Source: Candidatus Pampinifervens sinense (GTDB lineage Bacteria > Aquificota > Aquificia > Aquificales > Aquificaceae). From it: a stretch of DNA of 64,000 nt. The notes beneath the pieces are model-generated. The model did no database searches, was not told where the DNA came from, and saw only the letters and a program-made list of their open reading frames with translations. The translations under genes were made by a program, and so were the position numbers. Positions 11,200-20,564 of this stretch are shown piece by piece. The DNA is taken from positions 128,001 to 192,000 of the forward strand of contig JAXSPP010000001.1 of NCBI GenBank assembly GCA_037927135.1, written 5' to 3'. Position 1 is the first letter of the stretch. Every line of letters begins with the position of its first letter.

Positions 11200-12420
11200 A
11201 TGTTTATACAAAAGGCTGGTAAAAGGGTGGTCTATTTGGACCACATAGCCACAACGCCTGTAGCGCAGGAAGTGATTGAAGCTATGCTCCCATACTTTAG
11301 AGAGCACTTTGGAAACCCCACATCTCTTCATAGCTTTGGGCAAGTTGCCAAAAAGGCTATAAATGGTGCAAGAGAAAAGCTGGCTGCTTTAATAAATGCC
11401 AACTCTCCGGAGGAGATAATTTTTACCTCTGGTGGTATAGAAGCGAACAATCTGGCCATTAAAGGTATAGCAGAGGCCTATGAAAAGAGGGGAAGGCATA
11501 TAATTACCACGGAGATAGAGCATCACTCCATACTCCATCCTGTTAAAAGCTTAGAAAGAAAAGGTTGGGAAGTGACATACTTGAAGCCAGACAAATATGG
11601 CCTTATACATCCAGACCAGCTTGCAGAGGCCATAAGGCCAGATACAGTATTAATTAGCATAGGGCACTCCAACAGAGAGATAGGAACCATTCAGAACATC
11701 AAAGAGTTGGTAAGGGTAGCAAAGGAGAAGAATCCAAAGGTCATATTCCATACAGATGCTTGTCCAACACTTGGACACTATCCTGTAGATGTAAAAGATT
11801 GGGGTGTGGATGCTGCTTCCTTTACAGCCCATCTTATGTATGGTCCAAAAGGCGTGGGAGCCCTTTGGACAAGGAAGGGAGTGAAGATAAGGCCTCTTAT
11901 AGAAGGTGGAACTCAAGAGAGGGGTGTGAGAGCTGGTACAGAAAACGTGCCCGGCATAGTGGGCTTTGGTGCGGCATGCGAGCTTGCTATGAAAGAACTT
12001 CCAGACAGGATGGAAAGGCTCTCTCGCTACAGAGACAGGCTAAGAAAAGGCCTTGAGGAAAAACTTGACATGATTGAATTCACAGGACATCCTACTCAAA
12101 GACTTCCCCACCACCTTTCTTTGATAGTTCACCTTATAGAAGGTGAAGCTATGCTTTTGAGGCTTGACCTTATGGGTATTGAAACGGCCTCTGGCTCCGC
12201 CTGCGTATCCTTGGCCTTAAAGCAATCCCACGTCCTCTTTGCCATTGGAGTGCCAAAGGAAGTGGCAAATGGTTCCATAGTCTTTAGTTTTGGAAGGGAC
12301 AACACAGATGAAGATGTGGATTACGTATTGGAAGAGTTTCCAAAGACGGTAAAGCTGCTCAGAGAACTCTCTCCCTTTACACCAGAAAACTGGGAGCAGT
12401 ATGTAAAGGGCAAAAAATGA
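11200..12420 (+). CDS. IscS/NifS-family cysteine desulfurase homolog (PLP Lys replaced by Leu)
   Basis: YLD..ATTP, GNPTSLH, RAGTENV and SGSAC motifs; TAHLMYGPKG in place of SxHKxYGPKG. Confidence 0.9.
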   Translation: MFIQKAGKRVVYLDHIATTPVAQEVIEAMLPYFREHFGNPTSLHSFGQVAKKAINGAREKLAALINANSPEEIIFTSGGIEANNLAIKGIAEAYEKRGRHIITTEIEHHSILHPVKSLERKGWEVTYLKPDKYGLIHPDQLAEAIRPDTVLISIGHSNREIGTIQNIKELVRVAKEKNPKVIFHTDACPTLGHYPVDVKDWGVDAASFTAHLMYGPKGVGALWTRKGVKIRPLIEGGTQERGVRAGTENVPGIVGFGAACELAMKELPDRMERLSRYRDRLRKGLEEKLDMIEFTGHPTQRLPHHLSLIVHLIEGEAMLLRLDLMGIETASGSACVSLALKQSHVLFAIGVPKEVANGSIVFSFGRDNTDEDVDYVLEEFPKTVKLLRELSPFTPENWEQYVKGKK

Positions 12421-13661
12421 AGATATTGGTGCATATCTGCTGCGCGCCTGATGCGGTCTATTTCCTAAAGAGGCTTAGGGAAGACTATCCCAGGGCCCAT
12501 ATAGTGGGCTTTTTCTATGACCCAAACATTCACCCTTATGAGGAGTACAAACTCAGGCTTATAGAGACTCAAAGAATATGCAAAGAGTTAAACATAGAAC
12601 TGCACGAAGGTGAATACGATGTGGAGAACTGGCTTTCTTATGTGAAAGGCTATGAAGATGAGCCAGAAAGGGGCAAAAGGTGTGCCCTTTGCTTTGACTA
12701 TAGGCTTTTGAGGAGCTTGGAATTTGCTAAAGAAATAGGGGCCACCCACCTTACCACCACCCTACTTATGAGCCCAAAGAAGGAGTTTTTGATGCTAAAA
12801 GAGAGCGGAGAAAAGGTGTGCGAAGGCTCGGGCATTGAGTTTCTTGCATTGGATTACAGAAAAGGTGGCGGCACGCAAGAGATGTTTAGCCTTTCCAAAA
12901 AACTGGAACTATACCATCAGGACTACTGTGGCTGTATATACGGACTTTTCAAACAGAAAAAGGAAAAGGCTCAATGGGACCTTTTGACCTTTGGAGGAAG
13001 AAGGCCCGGAAGCAAGGAGGAGATGATATTCATAAAAGAAATAAGGCTCTTTGCGGAAGAGGAGCTTTCTCTTTCATGTAAAGAGTGGGAGTTTGGCTTC
13101 TTAAACTGGAAAGTGGTTATGGGTAAGATAGAGGTACAAGGCCAGACCATTCCATCTTTGGTAAGACCTTTCTCTTCTTCTATTAGAGGCCTCTTGAAGG
13201 CAGACCCTGTGGAAAAGGTAGGGAATGTTATCTACTACAACAAGGGGGGTTTGAGAGTAATCCTAAAAGAAAGGCTGGAAGACGAACCCATAGAAAGGAT
13301 AGATGGCCTTTGCAATCCCACCTTTATTGTTTCCAAAGAGTATGAGGAGATTCTCTTGAAAAACAGAGTCAGTGCCATGTTGCAGACGGAGATAACACCG
13401 GATAAATCCTTGGTGCTTTTGGTAGGAAGCCAAGAGGCGGAGGAAATTTTTAAGGTTCCTGCGGATACTTTGCAGGACGGAAGAGGAATAAGCTTGGAAG
13501 AGGTAAAAGATCTTCTTTTAAGAGATGCAAAGGATATAGCCATAGGCAAAAGGGCCTATCTTTTAGTGGGTGCAAGCAGCCTTGGAGACCCCGGCACAAA
13601 GTTTTTTGAAGAAAGAACGGGAAGAAAGGTTAGCCCTCTTCTTTGTAGTCAAACTCCTTAG
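12417..13661 (+). CDS. queH: Epoxyqueuosine reductase QueH (DUF208) with C-terminal extension
   Basis: HICCAPD, PNIHP..EY, RC..CF and QDYCGC motifs. Confidence 0.88.
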   Translation: MKILVHICCAPDAVYFLKRLREDYPRAHIVGFFYDPNIHPYEEYKLRLIETQRICKELNIELHEGEYDVENWLSYVKGYEDEPERGKRCALCFDYRLLRSLEFAKEIGATHLTTTLLMSPKKEFLMLKESGEKVCEGSGIEFLALDYRKGGGTQEMFSLSKKLELYHQDYCGCIYGLFKQKKEKAQWDLLTFGGRRPGSKEEMIFIKEIRLFAEEELSLSCKEWEFGFLNWKVVMGKIEVQGQTIPSLVRPFSSSIRGLLKADPVEKVGNVIYYNKGGLRVILKERLEDEPIERIDGLCNPTFIVSKEYEEILLKNRVSAMLQTEITPDKSLVLLVGSQEAEEIFKVPADTLQDGRGISLEEVKDLLLRDAKDIAIGKRAYLLVGASSLGDPGTKFFEERTGRKVSPLLCSQTP

Positions 13662-14388
13662 CCTCCATCCAAAGCTTTTCCATCTCCTCAAGGCTCATAT
13701 CTTTTAGATTTTTGCCAAGTTCCTTTGCCCTTTTTTCCATATACCTAAACCTCTTTTCAAACCTGTCGTTGGCCTTTTGAAGACAAAGCTCTGCATCAAG
13801 ACCCAAAAGTCTACCAAGCTCTACCACCGCTGTTAGAATGTCCCCAAGCTCATGCTCAAGCTCTCTCCTGTCTTTTAAAGTCATAGCACCTTTTAACTCC
13901 TCTATCTCTTCCATAAGCTTTTCCAAGACTTGCTCTGGCCTTTCAAAATCAAAGCCCACAAGGCTTGCCCTGTCTTGTAGCTTTTGGGACCTCATAAGAG
14001 CAGGAAGGCTCTTTGGCACACCGTCCAACACACTCTCCCTCTCTTTTAGCTTCCTCTCCTCCCAATTTTTGAGAACTTCCTCCGGGCTTTCACATCCAAA
14101 AACATGTGGGTGTCTTTCTATTAGCTTTTTGTTTAACTCCTTTATCACATCCCATATATCAAAGGCTCCCCTTTCTTTGGCAATCTGAGAGTGGAAAACC
14201 ACCTGCAAAAGAAGGTCTCCAAGCTCTTCTTTTAGCTTTTTATCGTCTTTAGAGTCTATAGCATCCAAAAGCTCGTAAGCTTCTTCTATGAGGTACTTTT
14301 TCAAACTCTCATGGGTTTGGCTTTTGTCCCAAGGACATTTTGCCCTCAGTTCTTCCATTATTTTGAGGAGCTCTTCAAAAGGTTGCAT
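13630..14388 (-). CDS. mazG: Nucleoside triphosphate pyrophosphohydrolase MazG
   Basis: CPWD..QTH, EEAYE, EELGDLLLQ and RHPHVF motifs; tandem MazG domains. Confidence 0.95.
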   Translation of the reverse strand: MQPFEELLKIMEELRAKCPWDKSQTHESLKKYLIEEAYELLDAIDSKDDKKLKEELGDLLLQVVFHSQIAKERGAFDIWDVIKELNKKLIERHPHVFGCESPEEVLKNWEERKLKERESVLDGVPKSLPALMRSQKLQDRASLVGFDFERPEQVLEKLMEEIEELKGAMTLKDRRELEHELGDILTAVVELGRLLGLDAELCLQKANDRFEKRFRYMEKRAKELGKNLKDMSLEEMEKLWMEAKEFDYKEEG

Positions 14389-14406
14389 GGAAGTATATTA
14401 TAGTCT

Positions 14407-15612
14407 ATGGTCAGAGAAGCACTAAAACTGCTCTTTCTTATAACAGCCTATAACTTCATATTGCATTACCTATCAGACTTTTTGCCCTTTGACCTGTTTC
14501 CCAAAAATTTGGAAGACATATTAATAGTCCTATCCATTGTGTCCGCCTTATACCTCGCTTGGCTTTTTGGATATAGGGAAAAGACAGTCATATGGCTGGC
14601 CTATGTGTCCTTTTTTCAAGTATTAGGCCTTTCTTTAGTAAGACAGGATTATACGGTTATAACCCAGTTTGTTCCTTCACTGCTTATAACACTTTTGCTC
14701 CTTTGGCTTTTTGAATCACCAGTAGAAAAAAGAACTAAAGAGCTTGAAGAAAGTAGGAAAAAACTTGAGGATGAACTGTTAAAGAATGAGGAAGAATTGA
14801 GGAAGCTTACAGAGCAAATAAACCTTTTAAAAGAGCTTACAAAAAGGCTTTATAGAGAAAAAAGATTTATAGAAGAACAGCTAGAAAGGTTAAAAGAAGA
14901 GGAAAGTGCAGAAAGAAAAGCCTTAGAGAGGGAAAGGGAAGAGCTTAGTGAAAAGCTTACTTATACTCAAAAAAAGCTTCAAGATTACATGGAGAGGCTT
15001 GAGAGGTTGACCAAAGTTAACAGAGAACTCTTTGAAATGCTTGAAGCTATACAAGATACAAGACACAATGATGGAAAGGAAGAGCTTTCAAGATTGAGAC
15101 AGGAGAGAAAGAGGTTGTCAAAGGAGCTTATACAACTCCAAGAACTTCTTGAAACTTTGTCTAAAGAAAACATGGAGCTAAGTAAAAAATATGATGAGCT
15201 AAAACAGGCTTTTGAAAAAGAGAGGAAAGAAAAAGAGCTTTTGAAATTAGAGATTGAGGATCTGAAAAGCACGCAAAAGAAAACTAAAGAAGTCTATGAA
15301 GATATACTTGAAATAATCTTTGATAATTTAGAGTTTGAGGAAAGGGCTATTAAGGAGTTTACAGAGCTAAGCTATGAAGCAAAGAAGGAGTTTATAAAAG
15401 AGCTCCTTCTTTTAGATATGAAGAGCTATGAGGAAAGATTTGAAAGCGTGAGGGGCTATAAGAATGTTTTTAAATTGAAGCCAGCGGGTGGAAGGATATA
15501 CTTCACCTTTGGAGAAAGAAAAAGGTGGAAGATTTTAGGTATGCTGTGGGGTGAAGATACAAAGACAAAGAATAGATATATTAGGGATCTTTTGGTAAAA
15601 TATAAAGACTAA
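14407..15612 (+). CDS. Membrane-anchored coiled-coil protein with C-terminal RelE/ParE-like domain
   Basis: About 4 N-terminal TM helices, a ~190-aa heptad E/K/L coiled coil, and a C-terminal LEFEERAIKEF...VFKLKPAGGRIYF...KILGMLWGED. Confidence 0.7.
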   Translation: MVREALKLLFLITAYNFILHYLSDFLPFDLFPKNLEDILIVLSIVSALYLAWLFGYREKTVIWLAYVSFFQVLGLSLVRQDYTVITQFVPSLLITLLLLWLFESPVEKRTKELEESRKKLEDELLKNEEELRKLTEQINLLKELTKRLYREKRFIEEQLERLKEEESAERKALEREREELSEKLTYTQKKLQDYMERLERLTKVNRELFEMLEAIQDTRHNDGKEELSRLRQERKRLSKELIQLQELLETLSKENMELSKKYDELKQAFEKERKEKELLKLEIEDLKSTQKKTKEVYEDILEIIFDNLEFEERAIKEFTELSYEAKKEFIKELLLLDMKSYEERFESVRGYKNVFKLKPAGGRIYFTFGERKRWKILGMLWGEDTKTKNRYIRDLLVKYKD

Positions 15613-15635
15613 AGGCTGTAAGAGGAGGAAAGGAG

Positions 15636-16853
15636 ATGAGAAGTCTGAAAGAGGCCATTGAGACCCTTCTGTCTTTCAAGCCAAACGATTATATGATCAC
15701 AAATCTTTACCTTAGGCTTGATGTAGAAGACAGAGAAAATAGAAAGTATCTTAAGAACTTTAAGGATCTTGTAAAGGTTCATAAAGAATACTTGGAAAGG
15801 CGAAACTTAAGGAAGGAAGTTCTAGAGTCAATAGAGGAGGATTTTAAAAAGATGGAAGAGTTCTTATCGGAACCTGATAATCTAAAGGGTTGTAGAGGTA
15901 TAGCTATATTTTCATCTTCCGCAAGGGGTATATTTGAGGTGATAAAACTACCTTATGTATACAGAAACAGGTTAATGCTTTCTCACGATCCACTTTTGAG
16001 AGAAATAGCTTCTATAGATGAGGAGTTGGGAAGAGTAGGTATACTTCTGGTGGATAGAAAACATGTTAGGTTCTTCCTTATGGATCTTGAGGGTTTGGTG
16101 GAGGTAGTTGATTTTGTTGAGCCTATAGCCACAAGAGCTCATAAGTTTCACTCTGGTGGTGGCCTTTTGAAAGGAGCGGAAGGTATGATGAGGTTCTCTA
16201 TGCCTCAGAGGATAGGTGGTCCAAATATGGTACAGCATTCCTTTGGTGAGTATAGGTTTCATATGAGGATAAGAGAGGAAAAGCATAGGCTTTTTAAAAT
16301 AGCATGCGATGCTCTCATGGAAGCGTGGAAAGAAAGCAAATTTGACAAATTGGTAATAGGTTCAGACAGGGAGGATATAGAGGAGATAGAAAACCATCTT
16401 CACACATACCTAAAGGAAAGGCTTATTGGCTACATAAGGGTCAATCCATCTTATGTAGAGGAAAATGATTTGAGAGAGAAGGTCTTTGACCTTCTTATTC
16501 AAAAAAGCAGGGAGGAAGAAAGGGAGTTGATAAAGGAGCTTGAAGAGCTTCAGGGAAAAGGTTTAGCAGTCAATGGAACTTCAAAGGTAGTAGAACAGCT
16601 ATATATGGGCAATGTTAGGGTATTACTTGTACCAGAAGATTTTCATAAACCTGGTTATGTATGTGAAAATTCTCATCTACCACTCCTTACTTCAAACTGT
16701 CCTACCGATGAAAAGGTTTATGAGGTACCGGATGTGGTAGAAGAGATTATTGAGATGGCTCTAGAAGAGAGGGCAAGGGTAAAGGTGCTCTTTTTAGAGG
16801 AAACTAAGAGGAAGATAGATGGACTTGCTTGTCTCATGCGGTTCGCTCTATGA
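15636..16853 (+). CDS. Bacterial archaeo-eukaryotic release factor (eRF1/aRF1-like, baeRF) homolog
   Basis: NLYL.LD and GIAIFS N-domain; LLVDRKHVRFF middle domain; GLAVNG...V..L..G.V..LLV eRF1 domain-3 pattern with a Cys mini-domain. Confidence 0.8.
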   Translation: MRSLKEAIETLLSFKPNDYMITNLYLRLDVEDRENRKYLKNFKDLVKVHKEYLERRNLRKEVLESIEEDFKKMEEFLSEPDNLKGCRGIAIFSSSARGIFEVIKLPYVYRNRLMLSHDPLLREIASIDEELGRVGILLVDRKHVRFFLMDLEGLVEVVDFVEPIATRAHKFHSGGGLLKGAEGMMRFSMPQRIGGPNMVQHSFGEYRFHMRIREEKHRLFKIACDALMEAWKESKFDKLVIGSDREDIEEIENHLHTYLKERLIGYIRVNPSYVEENDLREKVFDLLIQKSREEERELIKELEELQGKGLAVNGTSKVVEQLYMGNVRVLLVPEDFHKPGYVCENSHLPLLTSNCPTDEKVYEVPDVVEEIIEMALEERARVKVLFLEETKRKIDGLACLMRFAL

Positions 16854-17446
16854 GCTATGAGAGGGTAGTGATTTTTATTGATGGGTCTAACCTTTTTCAT
16901 GCTATAAGGTATTTGAATGTAAGGATAGATTATCAAAAGCTTATTGCCTTTTTGGCAGAGGACAGAAAGCTCATAAGGGCTTACTTTTATGGAGCTGTTC
17001 CACAGGAAAAGGATCTGAAGAAGAACTCTCCTGAATGGGAAAGTTATCTAAGGCAGAGAAGGTTCCTTGAAGAACTTTCGCTCCAGGGTATAAAGGTAAA
17101 GTTGGCAAAATTGAGGAGGCTTCCTTCTGGTGAGTATGTAGAAAAGGAAGTGGATATCATGCTTGCCACAGATATGTTAAGCATGGCCTATATGAATGTT
17201 TTTGATACGGCTGTGCTTGTGAGCGGAGATAGCGACTTTTCTTACACTGTGGAGGAGGTGCAGAGGATAGGTAAAAGGGTTGAGAATGCTTCTTTTAAAA
17301 GGACAAGTTCTTACCATCTTAGGAAGGTGTGCGATAGGTTTGTGCTTTTGGATGATTATTTGGATAGGTTTGTGATAGAAGAGAGGCTGGAAATTACACA
17401 GGAGGTTAGCTTTTGGGAAAAGATAAAAAGGCTATGGAAAAGGTAA
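16850..17446 (+). CDS. NYN-domain (LabA/DUF88, PIN-like) ribonuclease
   Basis: FIDGSN, EKEVDIMLATD and LVSGDSDF motifs; ATGA overlap with the upstream stop. Confidence 0.92.
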   Translation: MSYERVVIFIDGSNLFHAIRYLNVRIDYQKLIAFLAEDRKLIRAYFYGAVPQEKDLKKNSPEWESYLRQRRFLEELSLQGIKVKLAKLRRLPSGEYVEKEVDIMLATDMLSMAYMNVFDTAVLVSGDSDFSYTVEEVQRIGKRVENASFKRTSSYHLRKVCDRFVLLDDYLDRFVIEERLEITQEVSFWEKIKRLWKR

Positions 17447-18378
17447 AATCCTTAAGGACAAGCAGGAGTGGATGTATAAAGGGTTTAGTTTGTATAGAAG
17501 GTGAGGAGAGCGATACGGTTATCACCGTAGGCAACTTTGATGGGGTTCATCTTGGACATAGATCCCTATTAAATAGGGTTAAAAAGATAGCTGAAGAGAA
17601 GGGTCTAAAAAGTGTAGTTCTTTCCTTTTATCCACATCCCATTAAGGTACTTAGTCCTTCTCAAGCTCCCTGCGAGCTTACAAACCTTTATGAGAAGGCA
17701 GAGCTTATACTTCAAGAGGGTATTGAAAGCGTAGTCTTTATAAAGTTTGACAAAAGCTTTGCTACTCTTAGTGCAGAGGATTTTATAAGGGAGGTTATAG
17801 TTCAAAGGCTAAAATGTAAACACCTTGTAGTAGGATACGATTGGAGGTTTGGCTACAGACGTGAGGGGGAAATAGAGCTGGCAAGGGAGATGGGAAGGGA
17901 GCTAGGCTTTGAGGTGGAGGAGGTACAGCCTTTTAGAATCAACGGCCATATAGTGAGTAGCACATTGATAAGAAGGCTTTTACATATGGGTAGGCTTGAA
18001 GAGGCCTCTTTGTATCTTGGGAGAAATTACTCAATAAGGAGGCGTGTGGTAAAAGGAGATGGGAGAGGTTCTTCTCTTGGCTTTCCCACAGCAAACCTTG
18101 AAAACACGGAAGATCTTTGCCTAAAGGAAGGTGTTTATGTGGTAAAAGTGGAGGGGAATCTGTTAGGCGTGGCAAATTACGGTAGAAGGCCTACTTTTGA
18201 TGGCCACAGAAAGGTGCTTGAAGTGCATATACTTGATTTTGATGGAGACCTAAGAGGGAAGCATATAAAGGTGGAGTTTTTAAAGTTCTTAAGGGAGGAG
18301 AAGAAGTTTAGCTCGGTGGAAGAACTTGTAAAACAGATACAGGAAGATATATCAAGAGCTAGATTGTTCTTCCGTTAA
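17434..18378 (+). CDS. ribF: Bifunctional riboflavin kinase/FAD synthetase
   Basis: GNFDGVHLGH, SSTLIR, GFPTAN and EVHILDF motifs; start codon uncertain. Confidence 0.95.
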   Translation: MEKVKSLRTSRSGCIKGLVCIEGEESDTVITVGNFDGVHLGHRSLLNRVKKIAEEKGLKSVVLSFYPHPIKVLSPSQAPCELTNLYEKAELILQEGIESVVFIKFDKSFATLSAEDFIREVIVQRLKCKHLVVGYDWRFGYRREGEIELAREMGRELGFEVEEVQPFRINGHIVSSTLIRRLLHMGRLEEASLYLGRNYSIRRRVVKGDGRGSSLGFPTANLENTEDLCLKEGVYVVKVEGNLLGVANYGRRPTFDGHRKVLEVHILDFDGDLRGKHIKVEFLKFLREEKKFSSVEELVKQIQEDISRARLFFR

Positions 18379-18636
18379 GTATCCTATGTAAAGAACTTTT
18401 CCGTCTTCCGAAAGTCCAAAGGCCTTTTCCATCTTGTCCTTCAAACCCTTCTTATTCTCCAGAAAATCCTTCAAGGTTTTTGGTTCTCCATGGGCTCTTA
18501 GCATATACTCCCTTACCTCTCCATTGTCAAAGTAGATTTTTACAGGGAGGCAATAAAACTTGGCATTTTCTCCATCATGGCACCTATTTATCTCTCCGAT
18601 CACCTCAATACTCACACTCCTTGCTACAATTCTCAT
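18352..18636 (-). CDS. Hypothetical protein
   Basis: 94-aa ORF with host-like codon style and a -10-like box 7 nt before ATG. Confidence 0.7.
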   Translation of the reverse strand: MRIVARSVSIEVIGEINRCHDGENAKFYCLPVKIYFDNGEVREYMLRAHGEPKTLKDFLENKKGLKDKMEKAFGLSEDGKVLYIGYLTEEQSSS

Positions 18637-18646
18637 AGCTTATATT

Positions 18647-20215
18647 TTAACTCATCCCTAGCTCTTTAAGTTTCCTCCACAATGTGGTCCTATGGATGCC
18701 TAACATTCTAGCCGCTAAGCTTTTGTTTCCACCGGCCTCTTCAAGGGCCTTTTTAATCTTCTCCCTTTCATCTACCACGTTCACAGAAAGGCTTTCCACC
18801 TCAATCTGAAGGTCTTCGGGTTTTATAAGGGCACCTCTACAGGTTATGACCGCATGTTCTATAATGTTTTCAAGCTCCCTTACATTTCCAGGGAAGCTAT
18901 GGGAGAGGAGGATCTTCATAGCTTCTGAGGTAATACCCCTTATTCCTCTTGAGTATTTCCTTGAGTATTTTTCTATAAAATGGCTTACAAGGGGAGGAAT
19001 GTCTTCTTTTCTTTCTCTTAATGGTGGGATATGGAGCTTTACAACGCTAAGTCTATAGTATAGGTCCTCCCTGAACAAACCTTGTTTTATAAGGTCTTTT
19101 AAATTTTTGTTTGTGGAGGCTATGATACGAACGTTAGCCCTTCTAGTCCTTGTATCTCCAAGCCTTTCAAACTCCTTTTCCTGAACCAAATGTAGTATTT
19201 TTGCCTGCAGGTGCAAAGGCATATCCCCTATCTCGTCCAGAAATAGCGTTCCTCCTTCCGCCAGCTCCACCTTTCCCGGTTTATCCCTCATGGCACCGGT
19301 GAAGGCACCTTTGACATAACCAAAAAGCTCTGCCTCCAATAGGCTCTCAGGTATGGCTGCACAGTTCACCTTTACAAAGGGACCATCCCTCCTCGGAGAA
19401 AGGTAATGTATATACTTGGCAAGGAGGCTTTTCCCTGTGCCAGTCTCACCCTCTATAAGCACGTTAACATCGTACTCGGCAACCACCTTTGCCGTATCTA
19501 AAACCTTTTGGAAATTGGGGTTTCTAGTTATTATCTTTTCTTCGCTTTCAAACTCGCATATATCTATATCTTTTACAACGTAAAGAGAAACTACATAGCC
19601 AAATCCAGAGGTCATAGGAGAGACAAGGAGGGAAGCCTTTTGTCTTCCACAAGGAGTTTCCACAAAAATGTCTGCCCTTTCCCCTTCTGGAGGAAGATCC
19701 TCCAAGGAAAGGTTTATAAGGTCCTGTATATGCCTACCCACCAAGACCTCATCCTCCTCTCTGCATAGCATCCTACTTGCCACTTTGTTATGCTCCACCA
19801 CCTTCCCTTCTGGGTCAAGCACAAGTATGGCTTCCACTATGGAGTTTAGTATGGTCTCCTTGTAGGTCCTTTGGCGCTCCGCTTCCACTATACAATGAAC
19901 CACATTGCTAACATCCTTAAAAACCTCTATTACACCCACAAACTCACCCTCTTCATAGAGGGGAGACATACTCCAACATACATGCTTAGAGTTCCTTAGA
20001 GTGGTGTCATAGACCTGGACTCCTTCCCTTTCCTCTTTCACATACTCAAAGGGACAATGTTCACATATAGAGAATAGCCCTCTACAGCTTTTCCCTTCTA
20101 AAGCTTCTCCCAGAAGCTCCTTCGCAGATCTATTAGCATAAACAACTTTAAAATCTTTGTCTATGATCAAGACACCATCAAAGAGACTTTCAAAAGGGAG
20201 GAAGTTTAACTTCAC
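18647..20215 (-). CDS. Sigma54-dependent transcriptional activator (2 PAS + AAA+ + Fis-type HTH)
   Basis: [46 protein letters not shown] motifs and a C-terminal HTH. Confidence 0.96.
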
Positions 20216-20463
20216 TCCTTTTTACCGTAGTGCTTATAGAGATACTCCACAATGGGTCCTATATCCTCCTGTTTTATAGGGGCTCCAAAGACCTTTATCA
20301 TCTTATTTACGCTCGCTTCCCACCCCTTTTTATCAAGGAAAGGTGAGTTCATCTGGATGTAGTCAAGACTGTGGCAGACTGAGCAGTTGGCTTCAACCAG
20401 CTCTTTACCTACAGCTACAAACCCCCCTAAACCACTTTTAATAAGATCCCTTCTACTTAGCAT
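20212..20463 (-). CDS. SorB-like cytochrome c with a Tat-type N-terminus (probable sorA::sorB deletion remnant)
   Basis: SRRDLIK twin-Arg motif, then NCSVCHSLDYI...W...V.KM...FGAPI (SorB-like). Confidence 0.7.
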   Translation of the reverse strand: MLSRRDLIKSGLGGFVAVGKELVEANCSVCHSLDYIQMNSPFLDKKGWEASVNKMIKVFGAPIKQEDIGPIVEYLYKHYGKKE

Positions 20464-20564
20464 TTCTTAACCTCCCTCTAAATATACACAGGTTTAATCA
20501 TAGATTCAGGTTTTAGGCTTTTGCAATAAAAAAATATTATCTAATCCATAAGCCTACCTTATAA

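Follow-up and report, generated by a model that had tools for sequence, protein, structure and literature searches.

In eukaryotes, an eRF1-like factor works together with endonucleolytic mRNA cleavage in Dom34/Pelota-linked no-go decay, and in Bacillus subtilis the NYN nuclease Rae1/YacP acts in the ribosomal A site. Among the bacterial homologues of the archaeo-eukaryotic release factor aeRF1, Balon, the type of hibernation factors that bind the ribosomal A site together with EF-Tu under stress, was described only in 2024, which raises the questions of the fate of the mRNA on Balon-bound ribosomes and of the relation of hibernating ribosomes to RNases. The operon partners named in the legend of Fig. 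2 of the Balon study are chaperones, sigma factors, RaiA, RtcB and efflux genes, with no nuclease among them, and neither NYN nor Aquif- occurs in its main text, while its supplementary neighbourhood data may list such neighbours (Helena-Bueno et al., Nature 2024, PMC10901736). Members of the baeRF families that are without a glutamine were predicted to insert non-catalytically in the A site, and a few families keep one; for the baeRF-1 clade, the main text of the same paper stresses HPF/YfiA as a conserved neighbour and does not mention NYN, a link to NYN or to staphylococcal nuclease (SNase) in its supplementary neighbourhood data being possible (Burroughs and Aravind 2019, PMC6514570). Literature searches for baeRF with NYN, for Balon with “NYN domain”, and for baeRF12 or PF18856 gave no match among the papers covered. 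Here, we analysed a 64,000-nucleotide (nt) window of the genome of Candidatus Pampinifervens sinense (Aquificaceae; assembly GCA_037927135.1, contig JAXSPP010000001.1, positions 128,001 to 192,000, forward strand) and describe three adjacent genes, which encode a membrane-anchored protein with a predicted RelE/ParE-fold domain (gene 1), a probable Balon-type factor (gene 2) and a predicted LabA-like NYN RNase (gene 3).

The stable evolutionary unit at this locus is the translationally coupled pair of genes 2 and 3. Linkage was examined in an order sample of 148 genomes, in which whole-order counts include the genome of the window and counts for single families exclude it, and adjacency was counted by hand from match coordinates. 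Gene 2 was located immediately upstream of gene 3 in all 66 genomes of the window's own family (Aquificaceae) with a substantial gene 2 match, with a broken gene 2 in 4, and the junction in this family is often a 4-nt overlap. The pair was also kept where its flanks differ: the upstream and downstream neighbours are an epmA-like gene and ribF, respectively, in one setting, and acs and Ham1 in another. Gene 1 directly preceded gene 2 in 49 of the 66 genomes (some of the other 17 are possibly contig breaks), and its link is weaker than that between genes 2 and 3. Within the window's genus, the order gene 1-gene 2-gene 3 was found at 20 of 20 loci, followed by ribF at 19, the 20th ending at a contig edge. 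We read the locus as a lineage-specific Aquificaceae operon of genes 1, 2 and 3 and ribF, in which the first three proteins would act on ribosomes or their mRNA, with genes 2 and 3 functionally linked and gene 1 a looser partner, and put the probability of this reading just short of even.

A functional link between factor and nuclease is suggested by gene order and strengthened by an independent parallel in another phylum. The search outside the order used one genome per species and covered 50 gene 2 loci, 9 of them non-Aquificales; at none of these 9 was a relative of gene 1 or gene 3 found near the gene 2 homologue. In a Dadabacteria-like group, relatives of gene 2 (37-41% identical) occur in the order trmI (GCD14-type)-truD-factor-SNase-gidB/rsmG, the gene downstream of the factor encoding a staphylococcal-nuclease homologue (with a sub-threshold oligonucleotide/oligosaccharide-binding (OB) fold match in 1 of 3 copies scanned). 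The factor gene thus sits among RNA-modification genes in this group. When 101 genomes of the phylum were sampled, 27 gave a strong factor match. In the subclade at 62% identity or above, the SNase gene came directly after the factor in all 14 genomes. The junctions in these linked genomes were a 4-nt ATGA or GTGA overlap in 7, a 1-nt overlap in 1, a 10-nt gap in 1 and gaps of 253-1255 nt in 4, and one had no junction call. In a tree of the factor sequences, which is a quick tree only, the SNase-linked rows formed a basal grade within the clade of that phylum and the unlinked rows one nested clade. The Aquificaceae and Dadabacteria-like cases are alike in that the factor is placed before a widely conserved nuclease in one large subclade and is unlinked in a sister subclade, and the NYN and SNase nucleases have unrelated folds. 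On this comparative evidence, the arrangement reads as a recurrent pair of A-site factor and nuclease, with gene 1 as a looser third partner.

The product of gene 2 scored 82.9 bits with the Pfam model baeRF_family12 (PF18856; cut-off 27.7, E 4.1e-23), and this model is also annotated on all listed close homologues. Its AlphaFold (AF2) model (mean predicted local distance difference test, pLDDT, 82.6) has a three-domain aeRF1-like architecture, so that the eRF1/aRF1 pattern noticed earlier can now be narrowed to a Balon-type member of family 12. In Foldseek searches with this model, ranks 1-2 were Msmeg1130 on the 70S ribosome (E 1.3e-19, template modelling (TM) scores 0.65/0.72), Balon held ranks 4-6 (8rd8 at 1.9e-16) and Rv2629 rank 8, with E values from 1.3e-19 to 6.3e-15 across these proteins, and aRF1, eRF1 and Pelota came below the Balon proteins with lower global TM. 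With the NCBIfam equivalog models for hibernation factors, gene 2 reached 69.4 bits for AOC03_06830 (cut-off 330), 65.7 for MSMEG_1130 (480) and 21 for Rv2629 (320); by these scores, gene 2 represents a family related to those factors and is not their equivalog. The release-factor model TIGR03676 gave 32 bits (cut-off 234.7), and neither the GGQ motif of peptide release nor the NIKS motif of stop-codon recognition is present in the gene 2 sequence. Because both motifs are missing, a non-catalytic occupant of the A site is likelier than a release factor, and on sequence and model we regard the product as probably a non-catalytic Balon-type A-site factor. Several sources name its homologues “peptide chain release factor 1”, which on the same grounds is probably the wrong name. 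A canonical HPF/RaiA-type hibernation factor gene lies elsewhere in the same genome, unlinked to gene 2 (G000:C5:65682-66008; Pfam Ribosomal_S30AE, 56.8 bits).

An alternative explanation is that gene 2 encodes a catalytic rescue release factor which would hydrolyse peptidyl-tRNA on ribosomes whose mRNA had been cut by the product of gene 1. The aeRF1 three-domain fold agrees with this, as does the glutamine that Aquificaceae carry in the V-Q-H at the end of the GGQ-equivalent loop, a residue retained by a few baeRF families (PMC6514570). However, there is no GGQ, and only the histidine is invariant, the glutamine being replaced by arginine in the sister family and by proline in the other phylum. 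The model of this long loop has low confidence, and in structure gene 2 comes closest to Balon proteins, which are non-catalytic. We consider catalytic release, and with it the release step of the earlier note, improbable.

Gene 3 appears to encode an active LabA-like NYN RNase with an intact acidic site. Its product scored 112.5 bits with Pfam NYN (PF01936; cut-off 24.2, E 3.3e-32), five aspartates (D11, D102, D108, D127 and D129) were invariant in 18 sequences, and the source annotations of its homologues are LabA-like NYN/DUF88. The closest solved structure was 2qip, a protein of unknown function (1.2e-6). The open reading frame (ORF) listed for gene 3 begins at a TTG (16829) that is not conserved, and the matches of its relatives start at the ATG. 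A second NYN-domain paralogue (about 35% identical to gene 3) is encoded in the same genome (G000:C1:233687-234133; Pfam 1.1e-29) and in many relatives. In the genus that we label g11, the gene 3 orthologue is followed at a distance of about 0.5 kb by a gene for a PIN_5 ribonuclease (L127:5054-5611; Pfam 1.4e-53).

The C-terminal domain, or head, of the gene 1 product has, by profile and model, a RelE/ParE fold. A profile built from 23 head sequences was searched against the PDB, and its top four matches were E. coli RelE (E 0.004). With Pfam, ParE_toxin was matched by 4 of the 23 members (best 2.3e-5) and Gp49 by 3, and the window's own C-terminal piece gave no significant match, with bPH_9 sub-threshold only. 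Among 1.84 billion representative proteins, the head profile gave 27 matches at E of 0.001 or below, of which 24 belong to the gene 1 family. The other 3, all small, score above the Pfam cut-off for ParE_toxin or Gp49. The AF2 model of the head (pLDDT 89.6, predicted TM score 0.83) contains strands at 15-17, 61-64, 69-75 and 81-88 and helices at 19-26, 30-45 and 92-102, which matches the RelE/ParE element order beta-alpha-alpha-beta-beta-beta-alpha. Foldseek placed RelE (2kc8) first (E 2.1e-4, TM 0.57/0.63, 23% identity), its top seven matches were all RelE/HigB (E at most 9.7e-4), and RelE bound to the 70S ribosome was among the matches. Independently of Foldseek, the top 24 chains found by VIA-align were all toxins of RelE/ParE/HigB/YoeB/YafQ type (Z 9.5-5.8). 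A probability of 97.7% from hhalign against three RelE/ParE proteins carries little weight, as the partners were chosen from the head's own search matches.

We take the catalytic residues of E. coli RelE to be K52, K54, R61, R81 and Y87. In the profile alignment to the PDB, K356, K/R358 and R363 of gene 1 align with K52, K54 and R61; K356 is invariant in alignment A1 and conserved in at least 90% of alignment A2, position 358 is basic (K or R), and R363 is invariant. The RelE alignment stops before the C-terminal part of the head, where E383 and K388 show no variation, K386 is invariant in A2 but at least 90% conserved in A1, and position 391 holds either Y or F; that E383, K386, K388 and Y/F391 might be the counterparts of R81 and Y87 is only a guess. 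The N-terminal membrane region has three strong hydrophobic segments (35-57, 60-79 and 82-106) and a weaker one (6-24) on the Kyte-Doolittle scale. It is strongly conserved in A1 (invariant F10, L11, Y15, N16, F17, P32, W52, G55 and W63), polar positions included, and ends in an invariant E103-S-P-x-E107 motif. Between membrane region and head lies a charged helical stalk, in which residues 106-300 (195 residues) are 52% charged with no proline and a single glycine. When searched whole against Pfam, NCBIfam and PADLOC, gene 1 returned only coiled-coil noise of SMC/JetC type. No small ORF that could serve as an antitoxin gene was found up- or downstream of gene 1, whose neighbours are mazG and gene 2, and copies standing alone elsewhere have ordinary metabolic genes as neighbours. 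Homologues came from Aquificaceae-type sources only, and the gene looks vertically inherited, as a single-copy gene of one bacterial family. The combination of membrane anchor, stalk and antitoxin-free RelE fold is unusual in itself and is confined to the Aquificaceae-type group by profile search.

A RelE fold could also point to a toxin-antitoxin or anti-phage defence island, in which gene 1 would be the toxin and gene 3 an abortive-infection nuclease. Gene 3 does match the generic NYN model of PADLOC (7.5e-16) and its HEC-09 models, and RelE-sensor fusions exist in defence, such as Cami1, which was found among the fold matches of the gene 1 head (Foldseek rank 28, VIA Z 7.1). Against such a role stand the missing antitoxin gene, the metabolic surroundings of the unlinked gene 1 copies and the vertical, core-like inheritance across family or order; moreover, gene 2 had no PADLOC match, gene 1 only coiled-coil matches (JetC, DndD and LmuB, at E 1.7e-5 or weaker), and no mobile-element genes occur near the locus in the window. 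With neither the PADLOC scan nor the core-genome context in its favour, the defence role that had been offered as an option is very improbable.

The rival that deserves most attention is plain synteny, according to which three independent housekeeping or stress genes, coding for a membrane protein, a hibernation factor and an RNase of general function, came to be neighbours in Aquificaceae by chance, like ribF, and share no pathway; we regard this as quite possible, although clearly below an even chance. Much of the order-wide distribution favours it and weighs against our reading. Gene 3 belongs to the core genes of the order (found in 145 of 148 genomes, and in 95 of 95 of those of high quality; 86/89 in the window's family, 8/8 in the sister family and 50/50 in the third family), whereas gene 2 was found in 77 of 148 (69/89, 6/8 and 1/50) and gene 1 in 90 of 148 (79/89, 6/8 and 4/50, the last being weak coiled-coil matches only). 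Gene 3 can do without genes 1 and 2, because it is present in the 50 genomes of the third family and in all 8 of genus g11, which lack them. In genomes without gene 2 it has various neighbours, among them tgt and a deacetylase, secA and pgm, or a ParB-like gene and yidC. Losses of gene 2 that spared the other two genes were frequent: it is missing, with genes 1 and 3 adjacent, in 7 genomes and broken in 4, a remnant of about 40 residues preceding gene 3 in 3-4, and one genome that lacks it is 99% complete. In the sister family, genes 1, 2 and 3 lie on different contigs wherever they are present, gene 2 amid unrelated housekeeping genes. Genes 1 and 2 lie far apart in g17, in g18 and in most g15 genomes, with 914 kb between them in one complete genome of g15. 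The parallel has its own exceptions, as the SNase gene followed the factor in 0 of 13 genomes of the Dadabacteria-like subclade at 46-52% identity, where YbaK-like, PCMT and ICMT genes are the neighbours and no nuclease adjoins, and it was located elsewhere in the genome in 5 of 5 tested. Finally, the genome has a separate HPF gene, and ribF probably lies in the same operon, which would show that unrelated genes share the transcript.

What speaks against chance neighbourhood is the adjacency of genes 2 and 3 in 66 of 66 family genomes despite changing flanks, often with the 4-nt overlap, and the finding that in another phylum an unrelated nuclease gene occupies the corresponding place behind this factor. 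The link between factor and nuclease is nevertheless weakened because gene 3 is universal, gene 2 is repeatedly lost, the sister groups are unlinked and ribF shares the operon. The earlier note had proposed a single pathway for all three genes and had named a lack of linkage in related genomes as evidence against it. Of that proposal, the pair of genes 2 and 3 is supported, being kept in all genomes of the family with a substantial gene 2 match and paralleled elsewhere, while the inclusion of gene 1 is loosened, as it is unlinked in several genera, and the sister family shows no linkage at all. Its domain assignments were right for all three genes, and these identities are secure. The folds fared better in the structural comparison that had been suggested: Foldseek led from the gene 1 head to RelE and from gene 2 to ribosome-bound Balon proteins.

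Two observations on gene 2 outside the linked genomes are worth recording. The sole gene 2 match in the third family comes from a contig of 3793 nt of Sulfurihydrogenibium yellowstonense SS-5; it is 61-62% identical to gene 2 of the window, has neither gene 1 nor gene 3 beside it on this short contig, and could be a case of horizontal transfer or of assembly contamination. In g15, where gene 1 lies elsewhere, a 299-aa (amino acid) gene resembling class II aminoacyl-tRNA synthetases precedes gene 2 with a shared boundary base (L137:3105-4001). By its size and Pfam tRNA-synt_2 match it looks EpmA/PoxA-like, and would then be a translation-related neighbour.

Under our preferred reading, an Aquificaceae operon centred on the coupled pair, the gene 2 factor would most likely behave like Balon and fill the A site when ribosomes are idle or stalled, and genes 2 and 3 would serve the same process. 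The factor may park the ribosome while the nuclease clears the leftover mRNA or, alternatively, it may shield the ribosome from the nuclease. The RelE head of gene 1 could enter the A site of membrane-proximal ribosomes and either cut the mRNA or hold the ribosome there. A bolder version sees a two-gene cassette, in which a Balon-type factor is coupled to an endonuclease that has been swapped between folds (NYN in Aquificaceae, SNase-OB in the Dadabacteria-like group), as a counterpart of Dom34/Pelota-linked decay on stalled or parked ribosomes, fed in Aquificaceae by an antitoxin-free membrane RelE that cuts mRNA at the membrane; this we think rather unlikely. While gene order, conservation, folds and motifs are what the comparison provides, each biochemical step is proposed from sequences and models. 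A conserved, coupled factor-nuclease pair, with two unrelated nucleases in two phyla, would offer a concrete handle on what becomes of the mRNA on Balon-bound ribosomes, and it occurs in cultivable thermophiles with ribosomes suited to structural work. If the role suggested for gene 1 is true, a membrane-tethered, vertically inherited RelE fold without antitoxin would represent a new control of an mRNA interferase, by location instead of by antitoxin, and could point to translation quality control at the membrane. Should the arrangement be mere synteny, the analysis still gives a clean annotation of three genes that are “hypothetical” or misnamed.

The coordinates of the locus are collected in Table 1. 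Gene calls and junctions agreed with the earlier note in the three tightly spaced, co-oriented genes at 14407-17446, the 23-nt gap between genes 1 and 2 with GAGGAGGAAAGGAG immediately 5' of the gene 2 ATG, and the ATGA in which the gene 2 stop and the gene 3 start overlap (16850-16853). Its description of gene 1 (about four transmembrane helices, a long coiled coil, a RelE-patterned C-terminus), of gene 3 (a NYN RNase with intact acidic motifs) and of a divergently adjacent mazG was likewise upheld. It had missed the fourth gene of the co-oriented run, ribF, whose ATG (17434) lies within gene 3 and gives a 13-nt overlap with its 3' end; the transcript of genes 1 to 3 probably includes ribF as its final gene.

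Table 1 Features of the locus in window coordinates.
Feature	Position	Strand	Description or evidence
mazG, divergent neighbour outside the unit	13630..14388	-	Pfam MazG 4.4e-40
Gene 1	14407..15612	+	401-aa ORF; membrane-anchored coiled-coil protein with predicted C-terminal RelE/ParE-fold domain
Gene 1, N-terminal membrane region (residues 1-106)	14407..14724	+	Kyte-Doolittle scan
Gene 1, charged helical stalk (residues ~107-304)	14725..15318	+	Coiled coil or single helix
Gene 1, C-terminal RelE/ParE-fold domain, predicted (residues 305-401)	15319..15609	+	
Shine-Dalgarno-like GAGGAGGAAAGGAG before gene 2	15622..15635	+	Direct sequence reading
Gene 2	15636..16853	+	405 aa; probable Balon-type bacterial aeRF1 homologue, Pfam baeRF family 12 (PF18856)
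Gene 2, long low-confidence loop (residues 163-201)	16122..16238	+	At the aeRF1 GGQ position; ends V-Q-H; pLDDT below 50
Gene 3	16850..17446	+	198 aa from ATG; predicted LabA-like NYN-domain RNase
ribF (FAD synthetase / riboflavin kinase)	17434..18378	+	Pfam FAD_syn 4.3e-55, Flavokinase 3.9e-42

The start codons of mazG and gene 1 are only 18 nt apart, which is the whole divergent spacer. This arrangement is limited to the genus, where mazG was found upstream of gene 1 at 15 of 20 loci, whereas none of the other sampled genera showed it. A promoter-like TTCAAA-16-TATTAT site ends 5 nt before the gene 1 ATG, and no Shine-Dalgarno sequence precedes this gene (window 14374-14407). Because of these two features, the mRNA from which gene 1 is translated may be leaderless. 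Promoter-like sites were no commoner than in shuffled sequence (8 found, 9.0 expected), nor were terminator-like sites, none of which convincingly splits the four genes, and Rfam gave no match in 12000-20500. Three hot-spring metatranscriptome runs of a related study had 0 reads over the locus, which is no test of expression or co-transcription. On the other side of mazG, queH (12417-13661, + strand) overlaps the convergent mazG by 32 nt at its 3' end. It encodes 414 aa, of which the Pfam QueH domain spans residues 3-176 only; the C-terminal extension of about 235 residues has no Pfam match and is full-length in relatives at 74-88% identity.

Overall, the closest described systems match parts of this locus. 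Gene 2 shares with Balon, Msmeg1130 and Rv2629 the three-domain aeRF1-like fold, with the ribosome-bound forms as best matches (TM up to 0.72), and the absence of GGQ and NIKS, but shows only 14-16% similarity to them in structural alignment and falls into Pfam family 12. As this is the model of a family of the baeRF-1 clade, and gene 2 passes it, the likeness extends to that clade. Rae1 presumably belongs to the YacP-type NYN family, whereas gene 3 is LabA-like (PF01936). The gene 1 head resembles E. coli RelE and the RelE/HigB/YoeB mRNA interferases in fold, element order and the alignment of K356, K/R358 and R363; it differs from them in having no antitoxin and in being fused to a stalk of about 200 residues and a membrane region of 3-4 helices. 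Cami1 (CARF-RelE, PDB 8phb) likewise joins a RelE-fold domain to a regulatory module and has no antitoxin, but we take it to be a type III CRISPR protein, a sensor of cyclic oligoadenylate encoded in CRISPR loci, without the membrane anchor and stalk of gene 1. YqjD, ElaB and YgaM are unrelated to gene 1 in sequence, C-tail anchored and without a RelE fold, yet resemble its product as membrane-anchored proteins proposed to act on ribosomes (bioRxiv 10.1101/2024.08.16.608256).

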